Virus record (IMG/VR): IMGVR_UViG_3300030095_004454
Location: 1-37,298 of that record
From: a virus
Lineage: Duplodnaviria; Caudoviricetes
Reading direction: 5' to 3' (one strand)
DNA length: 37,298 nt
This document shows positions 378 to 37,075 of this stretch, one piece after another (position 1 is the first letter of the stretch; the number at the start of each line of letters is the position of its first letter). Below the pieces are notes generated by a model. The model was given only the letters and a program-made list of their open reading frames with translations. It was not told the origin of the DNA and searched no databases. The position numbers were made by a program, and so were the translations under genes.

Positions 378-427
378 AGCATGGTAAAGGTTCGATTCCT
401 TTATCATGCTCTGTCGCATGGTGCGAC
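378..427 (+). ncRNA. tRNA-minihelix-like T-loop hairpin plus second hairpin in 5' UTR
   Basis: 13-bp stem 378-390/398-410 (one G-U) closing loop TTCGATT; then GTCGCA-TGG-TGCGAC 413-427. Confidence 0.65.
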
Positions 428-458
428 TAATCTCAACAAAATAAATGGAGGTAAACTT

Positions 459-1852: not shown

Positions 1853-1888
1853 AAAAAAGCCCCTAGCGTAATGCCGGGGGCTTTTTTT
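1853..1888. terminator. bidirectional intrinsic terminator
   Basis: AAAAAAGCCCC...GGGGCTTTTTTT between convergent operons. Confidence 0.85.
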
Positions 1889-1953
1889 GTTTCCTAGACA
1901 TTGGCGGTGCGTTTACATGCATGGCATAACTAGGTACTTGCAAGTAATATGAA

Positions 1954-7788: not shown

Positions 7789-7825
7789 TACTTTTAATTA
7801 GAATCGTTATAAATGGAGGTCTATA

Positions 7826-8614
7826 ATGGGAACAGACTTAGGAAATATGATAAGAGTTTTTAGAGAGTCTAAAGATTTGAGTCGAAAAGAGTTTTGTAAA
7901 GTAGTTGGTATAAGTACAAGTGGGTTAGCTTATTACGAGAAGGGTGATAGAGAACCATCGGGTAAGGTATTACATAAAATCAGAGAAGGGTTTAGTTTAC
8001 CAAATACATTTTTTACAAAAGAATCAGAGGGAGATATTAAAGGAGAACAATCAATGAATACACAGTTATATGAAGACCATATAAAATTACAAAAACGAGA
8101 AATAAGCAGATTGGAAACGGATATAGATCAGTTACAAGCGACATTGGAAAAATTGGATAAAAAAGAGCCAGAAGAGCATGTTTGGAATGAACTAAATTTT
8201 CATTTTATGGCAGACGTGGAGTTGCATTGGGACGCTTTTGGATTAAATATTGGTAGAACTATTACTAATGTTACCAATATTGAAAAACAATCTGAAATAT
8301 TAGGATATTCTACAAGCAAACTAGAACAGCTTTGGGATGTTGGAGTAAAACACAGAACGATGGACGACCATCCAATAAATTCAATATTACATCCTGAAAC
8401 AATTGAAAATATCAATAAGATTGCAATGTCTTTACCGGCCATGTTTGAAATGGTCAAAAAAATAGTTGGTAATTATTATATACCGAGCAAACTATTATAT
8501 GAGTGTAAGGATGGTTCTTTTATTGGAGGAATATCTTATAATAAAATTATTTGGAGCGAAAAGAAGGTTCGTTCTAAGGTGGAATATATAATCGAAACCG
8601 ATTTTAATCAGTAA
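7826..8614 (+). CDS. XRE-HTH repressor with coiled coil and PAS-like C-terminal domain
   Basis: LSRKEFCKVVGISTSGLAYYEKGDREP HTH; EILGYS, LHPE, KDGS motifs. Confidence 0.75.
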   Translation: MGTDLGNMIRVFRESKDLSRKEFCKVVGISTSGLAYYEKGDREPSGKVLHKIREGFSLPNTFFTKESEGDIKGEQSMNTQLYEDHIKLQKREISRLETDIDQLQATLEKLDKKEPEEHVWNELNFHFMADVELHWDAFGLNIGRTITNVTNIEKQSEILGYSTSKLEQLWDVGVKHRTMDDHPINSILHPETIENINKIAMSLPAMFEMVKKIVGNYYIPSKLLYECKDGSFIGGISYNKIIWSEKKVRSKVEYIIETDFNQ

Positions 8615-8630
8615 AGAGAGGAGGTATTTA

Positions 8631-9581
8631 ATGTATGGATTATATCAAAAACCTTCTGGAGTTTATTATTATTCAAAAGGAAGTGGGAAAAATCGTATAA
8701 GAAAATCTTGTCAAACTAAAGAAAAAAGAATTGCTAAAAAAAGAGCTAAAGAGTTTGATGAACTATATTGGAATTCAAAGGGTGTAATTAGAACAAAACT
8801 TAGCGTCTTAATAAAAGAGTATAAGGCGACAGTAGAACATTTAAAAGATGCTCGAGCTAATAAGCGTCATGTTGATAACTTTTTTAAGTGGCTTAAATCT
8901 GACCCAGATATAGATGAATTAAGACCAAGTGTATTTGACGACTATAAAAATTATCTGTTAACTGAGCTTAAACCAAAGGTCAACACCCCAAAGACAGCTC
9001 GTAATAAATTAATGGTATTAAATACGATGATGGATTATGCATACCATACAAAAGAGTATATAAATAGGAATCCGGTTAAAGGTATCAAGATGCCGTCAAA
9101 AAACGCAACAAACCCCAGAAGGCCAGTTCCTATTGAGGACATTAAAAAAGCGATAGCTGTAACCAATAATAGAAAAGATAAAATACTCTGGAGTTTATTA
9201 CTTTATACAAGTCTTCGGGTAAATCAAGCTAGTAACCTTACACCTAATCAAGTTAAGCAAGGTATTATTCAAGCAAAAAGCAACATACCTAAACCAATAC
9301 CCCTTCCAGACCACATACTCGCATTTGGCGATGAAATATATAACATATATCCAAATTCAAATTACTATGGTGATAGTAGAAAAAGGTATCAAAAGATCAT
9401 GAAAAGTTTTGGTTATGATACTGACTTCCATTCAATCCGACATAGTGTTACTACTCACTTAGCTAAATCTGGTATGAGCGAGGCCGATATAAAGAACATC
9501 ACCGGCCATGATTCTAAAGCCGTTAAGACCTATATACACATGGGTACTGATGATTTTGCTAACCTCATTGATAAAATATAG
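8631..9581 (+). CDS. int: tyrosine integrase
   Basis: TSLR, HSIRH, TGH, Y catalytic residues; N-terminal arm-binding-like region; GGAGG RBS. Confidence 0.92.
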   Translation: MYGLYQKPSGVYYYSKGSGKNRIRKSCQTKEKRIAKKRAKEFDELYWNSKGVIRTKLSVLIKEYKATVEHLKDARANKRHVDNFFKWLKSDPDIDELRPSVFDDYKNYLLTELKPKVNTPKTARNKLMVLNTMMDYAYHTKEYINRNPVKGIKMPSKNATNPRRPVPIEDIKKAIAVTNNRKDKILWSLLLYTSLRVNQASNLTPNQVKQGIIQAKSNIPKPIPLPDHILAFGDEIYNIYPNSNYYGDSRKRYQKIMKSFGYDTDFHSIRHSVTTHLAKSGMSEADIKNITGHDSKAVKTYIHMGTDDFANLIDKI

Positions 9582-9760
9582 GGTGACACATTTAAGGGGT
9601 GACAGAATGGTGACACATTATGCACCCAAATAGCATAGAATGAACTACAATGACAGTCTCGTTTTAGAGGGAAAACAAGTAAAAGCCTCGTGGAGAGAGA
9701 GGGATTCGAACCCTTAATGCTCCCTCAGTAAATAATTAAAAGTGACAGATAGGTGACACT
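9581..9760. mobile_element. attP with tRNA-Ser 3'-end core and arm-type repeats
   Basis: Core 9692-9714 reads AGGGTTCGAATCCCTCTCTCTCC on - strand; GTGACA at 9583, 9599, 9610, 9742, 9753. Confidence 0.85.
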
Positions 9761-9769
9761 AGTTGCGTC

Positions 9770-9830
9770 CTAATAATAAAAAAACCCTCAATAAATGGAG
9801 GTTACCAAATTTCGAGGGTTTTATTATTAG
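9770..9830. terminator. bidirectional terminator-like hairpin with anti-RBS loop on - strand
   Basis: CTAATAATAAAA(AAA)CCCTC / GAGGGTTTTATTATTAG arms; 24-nt loop. Confidence 0.75.
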
Positions 9831-34723: not shown

Positions 34724-34773
34724 CCACTAATTACTAAATACTTCTTGCATCAATTGCTACAAATGTGTAGTAT
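34724..34773 (+). promoter_or_regulatory. early sigma70-type promoter with upstream candidate operator
   Basis: TTGCAT(34745)-17-TAGTAT(34768); CCACTAATTAC at 34724-34734. Confidence 0.65.
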
Positions 34774-34817
34774 GTGGCATTAGTTTTATTGCTTTTTCTC
34801 AATTTATGATTTCTTAA

Positions 34818-35080
34818 CGGCCTCCGAGCTAGTCGCCATGACGGGGTTGGAAATCTGAAGGCGTCCCGAGGGACAGCGTCTAAAAACTCTAAGCAGTCGA
34901 GCCGACTAATACTATCAATAAGCAAACAACGACACACCAACCGCAGAGCGTATATAAACGACACGAACAACAAAGCCTATAAATAAAAGCACGAAGACGA
35001 ACCGCCCGACTGAAGCAGAGTATAAAAAATACCTCCTCCATTTATGAGAGGCGACCCGGGACGCTTTCCCCTTTCCCGGG
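34818..35080 (+). ncRNA. structured leader/ncRNA of unknown class
   Basis: GC-richer non-coding tract with several local and long-range helices. Confidence 0.55.
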
Positions 35081-35114
35081 AAAATTTATTTTACTAACTA
35101 ATGGAGGTTATCAA

Positions 35115-35339
35115 ATGAAAGCTATATTAAAAATCGAAGAAGATTTCTTTACAGTAGTGGCTTATTGGTCTTATGAATTGCAAGAATATAAAATCGTTAT
35201 TAGGTACTATAACGAAGACCGGAAAAAATACAAGACCGAAGAATGCTTCGAGACAGAAAAAGAACCGGCACAAGATACAGCGTACGCAATTTATAACAGC
35301 TTAAAAAACAAGAGTTGCTCAGAGCTTAAAAGATTATAG
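35115..35339 (+). CDS. early hypothetical protein
   Basis: GGAGGT RBS, 74 aa. Confidence 0.75.
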   Translation: MKAILKIEEDFFTVVAYWSYELQEYKIVIRYYNEDRKKYKTEECFETEKEPAQDTAYAIYNSLKNKSCSELKRL

Positions 35340-35435
35340 AAAAATATAAATCTATGATCTATTGATAAAAACCCTAGCCCCGAGGGTAAACGGGGCAAGA
35401 ATTTTAATAAAAAACCAAATAATGGAGGTTATCAA

Positions 35436-35615
35436 GTGGATAAGGAAATAAAAGCACTCTGGGACTACTTAATAGAAACGCAACTAGTGACAGCAGACGA
35501 AGTTCGACTAGTTACGGCTATTAATGGGACGAACTTAGAATCGTTTGAAGACATGCTATATGTTAGAACCGGATACAGAGATTTAGAACAAATCTTAGAA
35601 GCTGAAGCTGAATAA
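35436..35615 (+). CDS. 59-aa early protein (not in ORF track)
   Basis: GTG start after GGAGGT; MDKEIKALWDYLIET...LYVRTGYRDLEQ. Confidence 0.8.
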   Translation: MDKEIKALWDYLIETQLVTADEVRLVTAINGTNLESFEDMLYVRTGYRDLEQILEAEAE

Positions 35616-35686
35616 AAAGACCTAGCCGGGAGGCTAATAAAACCCGGCAAAATTTTTCTCAATAAAAACAAAATGGAGGTTATACA

Positions 35687-36130
35687 ATGTCAACAAGAGC
35701 AAATATCGCTGTAGAAGGAACAGAAATAAAAATATATAAGCATTCAGACGGCTACCCGGAATATATGATTCCTAGATTAATCAAGATTGCTGATAAATTT
35801 TTAGAGAATAGAGGGAACGACCCCCACTATCTCCCGGCCTATATTCTTAGGGAATTTAAGATAATAGAAGAAGAAGAATCTAAAGACTGGTACACAGACT
35901 ACAAAGACCCTATCAAATCAAAAGACAGAAATGATTGTCTAGGTTGGGGAATTCAAACTGACTTCAGCGAAGATATTGATTTTATGTATAAGGTTAATTT
36001 AACAGAAGATAATCATTTCATAAATGTCTATAGGATTTATGGGGATTTTAATGATCATATTTTAAGTCGTTTTAAAGTAATAGATACTATTGATTTAAAC
36101 ATGAAGGAATATGATTATAAACTAGATTAA
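35687..36130 (+). CDS. early hypothetical protein with YxHxDGYP motif
   Basis: MSTRANI...IYKHSDGYPEY; strong RBS. Confidence 0.8.
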   Translation: MSTRANIAVEGTEIKIYKHSDGYPEYMIPRLIKIADKFLENRGNDPHYLPAYILREFKIIEEEESKDWYTDYKDPIKSKDRNDCLGWGIQTDFSEDIDFMYKVNLTEDNHFINVYRIYGDFNDHILSRFKVIDTIDLNMKEYDYKLD

Positions 36131-36199
36131 CAAAACCAGACCCGCTCGGGGGCAAATAATACCGAGCAAAATTTTTCTTAACTAATGGAGGTAATAATC

Positions 36200-36523
36200 A
36201 TGTTTAACAATCAAGTAATAACAGTTAGAACGCCCAACAGAGACGGACTTTGTGGAGTCTATACGGATTGGCTAGAGTTCTCTGAGGACTTAGACAAATT
36301 CCACTCTAAAATAAAAAATAGTATGGATGATTTTATTAAAAATTCTAAATATTTGAAGGATGGTGATATAATCTTGCCAACGCCGTCAATACTAAGAAGA
36401 AGAGTCACAAATGGATTACTAGCAGATGGCTTTGCAAGTGTTCCTATTGAGGATGCAGAAGGCGAATTCTATTTAGAAATTGAATTATGGGATAAAAATA
36501 GTTCTAGGTACTTTACAGAATAG
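36200..36523 (+). CDS. early hypothetical protein (start reassigned from 36185)
   Basis: ATG 36185 is part of the RBS motif; in-frame ATG 36200. Confidence 0.75.
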   Translation: MFNNQVITVRTPNRDGLCGVYTDWLEFSEDLDKFHSKIKNSMDDFIKNSKYLKDGDIILPTPSILRRRVTNGLLADGFASVPIEDAEGEFYLEIELWDKNSSRYFTE

Positions 36524-36596
36524 TTAACAAACCACGACCCAACCCGGGGGCGAACAATACCGGGAAAGATTTTTCTTAAACAATGGAGGTAATAAC

Positions 36597-36824
36597 ATGA
36601 AAACATACGATGTAGTCGTTTATGAAACTGTGAAAAAAGTAATCGAAGTAAAAGCTAAATCAAACGAAGATGCTGAAGATTATTTTTATCATGAATGGGA
36701 AAAAGGTTACCCAGATAATCATAAACTTGTAAGAAAGCAAGTAGTTGATTATGAAACAATAAGTGTCAATATAACCCCTCCCGGTATTCTCCGTAGAAGA
36801 AAGGAAAGGCGGTTAAAACTATAA
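36597..36824 (+). CDS. DpnD/PcfM-like small protein
   Basis: KTYDVVVYET..KVIEVKAKSNEDA. Confidence 0.6.
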   Translation: MKTYDVVVYETVKKVIEVKAKSNEDAEDYFYHEWEKGYPDNHKLVRKQVVDYETISVNITPPGILRRRKERRLKL

Positions 36825-36895
36825 CCACAACCCTACCCGGGAGGGTAAACCCGGGAAAGATTTTTCTCAATAAAAAAACAAATGGAGGTAATACA

Positions 36896-37075
36896 ATGGA
36901 AACGAATAGTATCTATGAAGTATATCTAAAGATAGTTCCAGAGAAGGGACACAAAAAGACCCTTGATTTTATACTAGATGTTTTAACTATGGGATTTAGT
37001 GCATCATGGGATGATGACCAACGCAAAACCCAAATTAAAATATTAGAAAATAAAATAAATGAGGTAATACAATGA
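36896..37075 (+). CDS. 59-aa early protein (not in ORF track)
   Basis: ATG after GGAGGT; METNSIYEVYLKIV... Confidence 0.7.
   Translation: METNSIYEVYLKIVPEKGHKKTLDFILDVLTMGFSASWDDDQRKTQIKILENKINEVIQ

Follow-up and report, generated by a model that had tools for sequence, protein, structure and literature searches.

What six consecutive H-type pseudoknots are doing among the small early genes of a tailed phage is the question raised by IMG/VR virus record IMGVR_UViG_3300030095_004454 (Duplodnaviria; Caudoviricetes), which was analyzed over its whole stretch of 37,298 nucleotides (nt), called the window here. Each unit consists of a pseudoknot core with two stems (S1 and S2, with L1 as the first loop) and an A/U tail, after which come a Shine-Dalgarno (SD) sequence and a small gene (Table 1). 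Judged from sequence, the units may be non-terminating 3' barriers, each for the cistron upstream of it, with an RNase E-type cut in the tail in this clade, a reading to which a probability of roughly 0.4 is given. If the units are such 3' caps, the phage would tune many small host-takeover genes behind one promoter, and the element would offer a 26-nt part for stabilizing cistrons.

Six pseudoknot units in an early gene array

The six units that a first-pass annotation had drawn in this array were found at the places and with the stems claimed, S2 starting at 35055, 35377, 35625, 36144, 36543, and 36836. The distance given there to the start codon, 32-40 nt, was reproduced as 34, 39, 38, 32, 32, and 40 nt from the end of S2, and AATGGAGGT is present in six of six units. 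Some pairings were amended: unit 4 has an L1 of 0 as drawn, so that one pair must probably open; in unit 5, the outer pair of S2 is gone, although it persists in relatives; and the fifth S1 pair of units 2 and 6 is broken in several relatives, so that S1 of these two units is probably 4 base pairs (bp) long.

A strict descriptor without bulges found three of the six units and had no match in 200 dinucleotide shuffles. A relaxed descriptor, which allowed one bulge, ignored the tail, and had thresholds chosen after the units were seen, found all six on the plus strand and none on the minus strand between 34901 and 37000; 296 of 300 shuffles gave no match and four gave one, and the remainder of the window held two other, unrelated matches on both strands together. 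Units 2-6 are not an assembly artefact, because they are bridged by contigs of run X2, from a different study, which span units 2 and 3 (no differing letters), unit 4 (none), and units 5 and 6 (one).

Covariation and fold class

Units of relatives were taken from six virus records with 92-95% terminase identity to the window, referred to as close relatives, and from further metagenome contigs; L003/L004/L005, L139, L140, and overlapping loci were left out as duplicates, both here and in the linkage count below. The resulting set holds 64 units in 11 non-redundant clade loci, or 71 with two outside groups, 45 of them distinct. Arrays of the close relatives have up to 12 units, with the genes reshuffled.

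Both stems covary among the relatives' units, as had been claimed for the window. S1, which was not used in detection, forms a helix in 37 of the 45 distinct units, above the maximum of 23 (mean 16) obtained with swapped 5' flanks. Among 10 hand-picked units of equal geometry, both sides have changed in 8 of 11 pairs (3 of 5 in S1 and 5 of 6 in S2), and the covariation score was reached in 0 of 500 shuffles, with slid controls at 0.14 or less, a result that is not a probability because the units are related. The G-U pairs hold on the sense strand alone. According to the definition of the CPK-1 pseudoknot in PMC3835772, the geometry belongs to this class: S2 is 6-7 bp in 39 of 45 distinct units, and among S1-positive units L1 is 1-2 nt in 35 of 37 and the inter-stem gap 0 in 36 of 37, as counted by a script that permitted only an L1 of 0-2 and a gap of 0-1. 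L1 is A in 38 of 45 units, and the first base of S2 is G in 28 of 45. These comparisons, by way of covariation, support an H-type pseudoknot of CPK-1 layout at the RNA level, in which both stems would form together.

Eight of the 45 units fell under the S1 threshold, seven of which are plain hairpins by eye and one of which has an A-U-rich S1. Because plain hairpins occupy the slot in these seven variants, stability seems to matter more than a pocket. Such natural variants, plain-hairpin substitutes included, make the choice between a 3' barrier and a translational role directly testable.

The layout had been likened to that of the T2/T4 gene 32 translational operator, an analogy that holds for geometry and spacing but not for the genes concerned. 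As described in PMC3014915 and PMC3835772, that operator also has an S2 of 6-7 bp, an L1 of 1-2 nt, stacked stems, and an A/U-rich stretch to the ribosome-binding site (RBS). An operator of this type would have a phage protein bind each pseudoknot, spread over the A/U spacer, and shut all cassette genes together, for which the CPK-1 layout, the spacer, and the frequent A of L1 and initial G of S2 speak. It is nonetheless quite improbable that the units work in this manner, as control would not be autogenous: in T4, gp32 spreads cooperatively over the RBS from an operator in the leader of SSB, the very gene under regulation, whereas the units stand in many copies before unrelated small open reading frames (ORFs), none of them SSB, and no copy precedes any replication gene. 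The loops also vary, plain hairpins replace the pseudoknot, the core occurs in phages of 33-71% G+C, and no gp32-like gene was identified in family scans. RNase E cuts the T4 gene 32 message at -71, 5' of the pseudoknot (PMC3014915), whereas the candidate site here is 3' of it.

Position at gene junctions and the A/U tail

S2 starts a median of 11 nt past a stop codon, with a stop within 45 nt in 65 of 71 units, and junctions at which stop and start overlap are without a unit. A model of the unit matched only the six array units in the window, and its strong matches in the near-complete relatives G001 and G002 are limited to the early cluster. Past S2, an A-run and then a U-run follow at 4-6 nt in 71 of 71 units, a range partly set by the detection pattern; the U-run is 3-8 nt long, and 5 nt or shorter in 64 of 71. 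The sequence RN/WUU, the RNase E consensus according to PMC5222698, lies 3-6 nt past S2 in all 71 units (shuffled mean 19, maximum 29), a count that is partly by construction since the tail was the detection anchor. The same tail was recovered by tail-free searches, in the window and in a group with 55% terminase identity that has another SD.

The reading as a 3' barrier is drawn from what holds in all contexts, namely a stable sense-strand structure right after a stop codon and inside an operon. One promoter would give a polycistronic early RNA, and transcription would continue through the units because the U-run does not directly adjoin the stem. The A/U tail would then be cut by a host enzyme of the RNase E or Y type, with 3-6 nt remaining past S2, and the pseudoknot would stall 3'-to-5' exonucleases, so that each cistron would keep its stop codon and gain its own half-life. 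What would be released, in this clade, are single-gene messages capped by a pseudoknot; exchangeable cassettes would be a by-product, with the tail-plus-SD stretch as the likely recombination crossover. The same junction slot also holds tRNA-top-half mimics and a pistol ribozyme (see below), which suggests that RNA processing is what these junctions are for.

A G+C-rich hairpin of -8 to -11.5 kcal/mol followed by 3-8 U could instead be an attenuator or pause site of the kind proposed for PeSL stem-loops, at which S2 and the U-run would partly terminate transcription and so grade expression along the array. PeSL stem-loops terminated in a lacZ test (PMC2839356), and a simple search for terminators picked out unit 6 as well as a short hairpin at unit 1, both on the plus strand. 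Attenuation is improbable given the 4-6 nt offset and the shortness of the U-run, the up to 12 units standing consecutively behind one promoter, and the lack of a promoter excess in the array to restart transcription (9 promoter-like sites against 11.3 expected, none carried by any unit); it would also leave the covariation of S1 unexplained, and most of the wider family is without a U-run. A full intrinsic terminator was rejected, as a U-run 0-2 nt after the stem would be required.

Gene shuffling and linkage of the core

Gene content between units in related phages was compared, as the first-pass annotation had proposed, and proved to be shuffled: 33 downstream gene families and 46 junction classes occur in 11 loci, in agreement with its idea that the units offer homology for swapping cassettes. 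Its description of each gene as led by a pseudoknot is reversed by the linkage, which favors genes followed by one. Of 13 families with a shared upstream gene, 7 have a core identity of at least 0.8, compared with 0 of 8 with a shared downstream gene, although two of these eight average 0.78-0.79. Because the pseudoknot stays with the upstream gene more than with the downstream gene, crossovers seem to fall mostly in the tail-SD stretch. This stretch is the part most alike across junctions, and the differences between junctions are scattered over tail and SD, not at one base. A proposed role in 5' stabilization does not agree with a pseudoknot that travels with the upstream gene and a candidate cut that lies 3' of it. 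Two irregular junctions were noted: in G003, a short repeat made up of stem end and tail stands on either side of an extra gene, and L006 has two units without a gene between them.

Units that are DNA-level sites only, either integron-like single-strand recombination sites or mere repeats, would account for a gene and its 3' structure traveling as a cassette, and both the tyrosine integrase of the phage and the repeat around the inserted gene of G003 would suit them. Such sites are very improbable, with G-U pairs that hold on the sense strand only, junction differences spread over tail and SD, single copies outside arrays, and an integrase without an integron-integrase-specific match above cut-off. 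An integron cassette array has an IntI integrase and attC boxes with a fixed crossover; it was rejected as an identity for the locus, where the integrase has sub-cut-off Xer-type matches only, no attC-type box is seen by eye after the stem, and no one-base crossover was found.

Translation of the downstream gene

The main rival to a 3' barrier is a translation-initiation element for the downstream gene, which would recruit protein S1 or the 30S subunit, insulate the SD from upstream sequence, or couple initiation to an upstream ribosome that melts the pseudoknot. S2 lies 30-41 nt from the start codon in 63 of 64 clade units, start codons in the wider family cluster at 11-17 and 31-34 nt past S2, and units are missing where genes are coupled by overlap, all as such an element would have it. 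In tisB mRNA, a 5' pseudoknot is needed for standby binding of protein S1 and 30S (PMC7708055); it too is of H-type and upstream of a single-stranded stretch and RBS, whereas the RBS of the present genes lies nearby and is free of strong sequestration, and copies of the element recur from one gene junction to the next. A translational role is nevertheless on the unlikely side: the core follows the upstream gene, and in the group with 55% terminase identity the start lies as far away as 53-78 nt, with no shift of the tail relative to S2. The SDs are strong and weakly structured, so that standby seems unneeded.

The spacer is weakly structured, with a mean minimum free energy of -1.4 kcal/mol against -1.9 when shuffled, but pairing of the SD is somewhat raised, at a predicted 0.62 compared with 0.48 with a shuffled spacer (higher in 37 of 55). 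This pairing barely moves, from 0.64 to 0.58, when the pseudoknot bases are withdrawn, which also argues against a translational role. A tail-SD hairpin as designed repression was rejected because the hairpin is too weak.

A CPK-1 pseudoknot a few nucleotides past a stop resembles stimulators of readthrough, and the units might by that likeness be recoding signals that join neighboring ORFs through stop readthrough or frameshifting. This is hardly tenable with frames that are mixed (20/18/25) and junctions that are in frame and open in only 2 of 63 cases; the downstream frame can be read back to the stop without interruption in 14 of 53, slippery heptamers occur in 9 of 53, and each gene has its own SD.

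How widespread the core is

Scanning for tail plus SD in 37 of the 64 parts of the metagenome collection gave at least 121 loci. Of 154 sequences searched with the model, 30 matched, 24 of them from the clade and 6 being single weak matches elsewhere; among 78 terminase loci, a strong match was found in L159 only, and the sister phages with 61-62% terminase identity (G008, 72% complete, and G009, 98%) gave no model match. A tail-free core pattern found one copy in the 55% terminase identity group, where the tail is unchanged, the SD is another one, and the start follows at 53-78 nt, and one copy each in unrelated phages of 50-55% G+C.

With a looser S2 pattern, at least 102 distinct non-clade matches were obtained from 20 of the 64 parts, six clade loci being left out. 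Under strict geometry, 20 of these 102 have an S1 of at least 4 bp, compared with 4.2 expected (maximum 12 in 2000), one of the 20 (L510) probably belonging to the 55% group, and a stop lies within 30 nt in 17 of the 20 S1-positive matches compared with 32 of the 82 others. Because most non-clade core matches are without the tail, the core is taken as a widespread junction element and the tail as local. The element is a small, well-covarying RNA family, not in Rfam, at gene junctions of phages that differ widely in base composition; one clade has amplified it as much as 12-fold, and there it delimits early-gene cassettes that can be exchanged. In L522 and L482, from phages of 53-54% G+C, the pseudoknot occurs two or three times among small genes over ~0.6 kb, with no A/U tail.

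Several of these results weigh against a 3' barrier with a cut in the tail. The tail is missing from 25 of 36 S1-positive core matches, and this local occurrence of the tail speaks against a dedicated cut site as the general function; the start codon lies only 11-17 nt past S2 in 10 of 17 matches with a called start, which suits a translational role better. Within the clade, RN/WUU is loose and is satisfied by any A-then-U run, and the RNase E consensus may not apply to the host and its nucleases. Five added A residues suffice to stimulate exonucleolytic decay at the end of an Escherichia coli stem-loop (PMC3997798), and the predicted overhang is 5-6 nt in 13 of 71 units. A terminating ribosome would presumably melt S1 every time. 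The tie to the upstream gene may simply reflect the place of greatest homology and has exceptions in 6 of 13 families, and counts of pairs that kept the core are less clear, at 13 of 22 with the upstream gene shared and 13 of 36 with the downstream gene shared.

Comparison with known systems

The closest comparison is with the PeSL (promoter-early stem-loop) cassettes of T4-type phages RB49 and phi1 (PMC2839356), where a repeated intergenic module likewise follows the stop codon and precedes the next SD, within an early region that varies and consists of small genes of no known function, and provides homology for gene shuffling. The locus shares with them a structure between stop and next SD and shuffling at the module, but no unit carries a sigma-70 -35/-10 promoter, the array having one upstream promoter, and the PeSL is a simple stem-loop, whereas the units are pseudoknots with a U-run offset from the stem. 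Both the principle (PMC2839356) and the fold class are known.

Intercistronic structures that split or differentially stabilize a polycistronic message without ending transcription are familiar from the RNase III sites of the T7 early region and from the REP stem-loops of E. coli. The helices of the units are too short for RNase III, and the units contain no REP sequence; they have a pseudoknot instead, to which a fixed A/U tail is added in this clade. The first hairpin and pseudoknot of the pistol ribozyme (RF02679) form an H-type unit of similar size with an A-rich linker, but the units lack its two further stems and conserved core, and pistol identity was rejected, with no Pistol match in the array region at E up to 10. 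ToxI, the type III antitoxin, consists of tandem pseudoknot repeats directly ahead of a toxN-type gene; it was rejected because whole genes separate the units and no ToxN-type Pfam match was found among 16 scanned proteins.

The possibility of a match to a described Rfam motif, raised in the first-pass annotation, was followed with Rfam 15, which gave nothing at gathering threshold in the window and five related loci. The array region had five weak matches only (E 1-9), one of them antisense over unit 2 at 20.8 bits against a cut-off of 45, and no match was found over the core in 20 unrelated loci. A literature search, mostly at title and abstract level, found no description of this pseudoknot junction element. 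Three of the six supplements of PMC10690425, which reports ten thousand viral RNA candidates, contained no match, and the element may be among its candidates; the available passages of the Minerva preprint are about other elements.

Leader, candidate promoter, and a possible antisense arm

The early operon has a candidate promoter (Table 1), the window copy of which is degenerate and was not listed by a promoter scan. An inverted repeat at 34753-34780 lies over this promoter, differs among relatives, and is a possible repressor operator. Unit 1 has no gene upstream and ends the non-coding leader, in which the parts constant among relatives are short blocks, a 13-nt anti-SD-like segment, and unit 1 itself. 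At 34895-35025, the leader carries an A/C-rich insertion of ~130 nt with repeated TATAAA-like words that is not in relatives. A consensus fold of the leader had 0 of 21 compensatory pairs in four sequences.

Among 14,890 windows of the record ranked as duplex partners of the leader segment, the integrase start site came first and the start site of a repressor-like gene (7826-8614, assigned by PHROG and sub-cut-off NCBIfam matches) fourth. Among starts led by GGAGG, the repressor ranked second of 14 in the window and first of 17 in G002 and G010, which share the same repressor site and were counted once, making two independent phages in a post hoc comparison; 8 in 1000 flank shuffles gave both ranks. 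Between the window and G002, the repressors have only 79 identities in 199 aligned residues, and their start sites would pair with the leader segment in different registers. The leader-integrase match is not kept in G002 or G010, G001 is without its leader, and neither a repressor-like gene nor a like segment was seen in G009. Pairing of the leader segment in cis with the 5' strand of S1 in unit 1 was predicted at -5.4 kcal/mol, against -5.9 for the isolated S1 duplex.

These pairings permit a wider reading, which is rather doubtful, of an RNA-punctuated early operon in which pseudoknots of an unlisted, widespread family of phage gene-junction RNA would cap processed units, while the anti-SD segment, freed by the folding of unit 1, would act in trans by pairing with the repressor mRNA at its start site, and in the window with that of the integrase as well, tipping the phage to lysis. 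If true, this reading of the leader would add an antisense arm to the lysis-lysogeny switch.

Genome setting and relatives

Family scans of the 37.3-kb record identified terminase, portal, capsid, endolysin, a repressor-like gene, and a tyrosine integrase. The array lies within a small-gene cluster transcribed away from the terminase genes; this early cluster leaves the window at its right end and continues from position 1, with some sequence missing between when compared with G001. Cassette gene 6 is shorter than the form in relatives and overlaps the next gene, and the unit that follows it in relatives appears deleted.

Table 1. Positions of the pseudoknot units, cassette genes, and other features in the window
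Feature	Positions	Strand	Remarks
Unit 1	35046-35087	+	Pseudoknot 35046-35080 and A/U tail; both stems invariant in 5 aligned leaders
Cassette gene 1	35115-35339	+	74 amino acids (aa), no family
Unit 2	35371-35405	+	Pseudoknot 35371-35396 and tail
Cassette gene 2	35436-35615	+	59 aa, no family
Unit 3	35618-35657	+	Pseudoknot 35618-35648, bulged A in S1, and tail
Cassette gene 3	35687-36130	+	147 aa, weak PHROG matches only
Unit 4	36139-36176	+	Pseudoknot 36139-36167 and tail
Cassette gene 4	36200-36523	+	107 aa counted from SD-led start, no family
Unit 5	36535-36574	+	Pseudoknot 36535-36564 and tail
Cassette gene 5	36597-36824	+	75 aa, DpnD/PcfM-like at 24.1 bits, just under the Pfam cut-off of 25
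Unit 6	36830-36865	+	Pseudoknot 36830-36855 and tail
Cassette gene 6	36896-37075	+	59 aa; in relatives 71-72 aa, then one more unit
Candidate sigma-70-type promoter of early operon	34745-34773	+	Aligned with TTGACA-17-TAATTT/TAATAT in 4 relatives
Non-coding leader before unit 1	34780-35045	+	Start approximate; length and sequence vary among relatives
Anti-SD-like leader segment	35031-35043	+	Invariant in 5 of 5 aligned leaders
Start site of repressor-like gene	7807-7819	+	11 nt perfectly complementary to leader segment
Start site of integrase gene (8631-9581)	8618-8629	+	12 nt perfectly complementary to leader segment
Ordinary hairpin and U-run terminator	1853-1890	+	Closes early operon; -20.0 kcal/mol
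Second junction module, same operon	378-452	+	13-bp helix closed by tRNA T-loop, small hairpin, then shared spacer and SD

Metagenomes that share DNA with the window are, where labeled, marine or seawater, and no RNA data set was listed among them. No cultured relative was found: the GenBank phage collection contained no relative of the array, the best pieces covering 1-2% of the query, and relatives of the capsid were at 33% or less among the 12 of 58 listed. A host was not found in a genome scan with a broad terminase alignment, in which the best match was 47% among the matches listed. Downstream of the integrase, 9575-9760 is attP-like, containing several direct repeats of GTGACA and, at 9691-9714, a tRNA 3' end in reverse complement, and could identify the host. 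The repressor-like proteins of the window and L400-L402 are ~33-40% identical despite terminases that are 92-95% identical, which suggests different immunity types.

Other RNA modules at gene junctions

A second type of module occupies the junction slot at 378-452, for which there was no ARAGORN tRNA call and no Rfam match; T-loop tRNA-like modules stand in the same slot in four sister phages. Such mimics of the top half of a tRNA were seen at early-gene junctions in the window, at L398:2880 and 4407, and in L154, L155 (four copies), L156, and L184, and are built of an acceptor-like stem, often a short UGG loop, a T-arm with T-loop, a CTCT-like linker, and a small hairpin. They are possible RNase P or Z signals. 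In an unrelated phage (L438:802-1137), a junction with the pseudoknot core is directly followed by one that carries a pistol ribozyme (63 bits). After the integrase, the window (9778-9815) and L400-L402 share a hairpin with A- and U-runs on both sides and a loop in which an SD-like ATGGAGGT is kept in all four phages; the window hairpin matches the leader segment over 11 nt.

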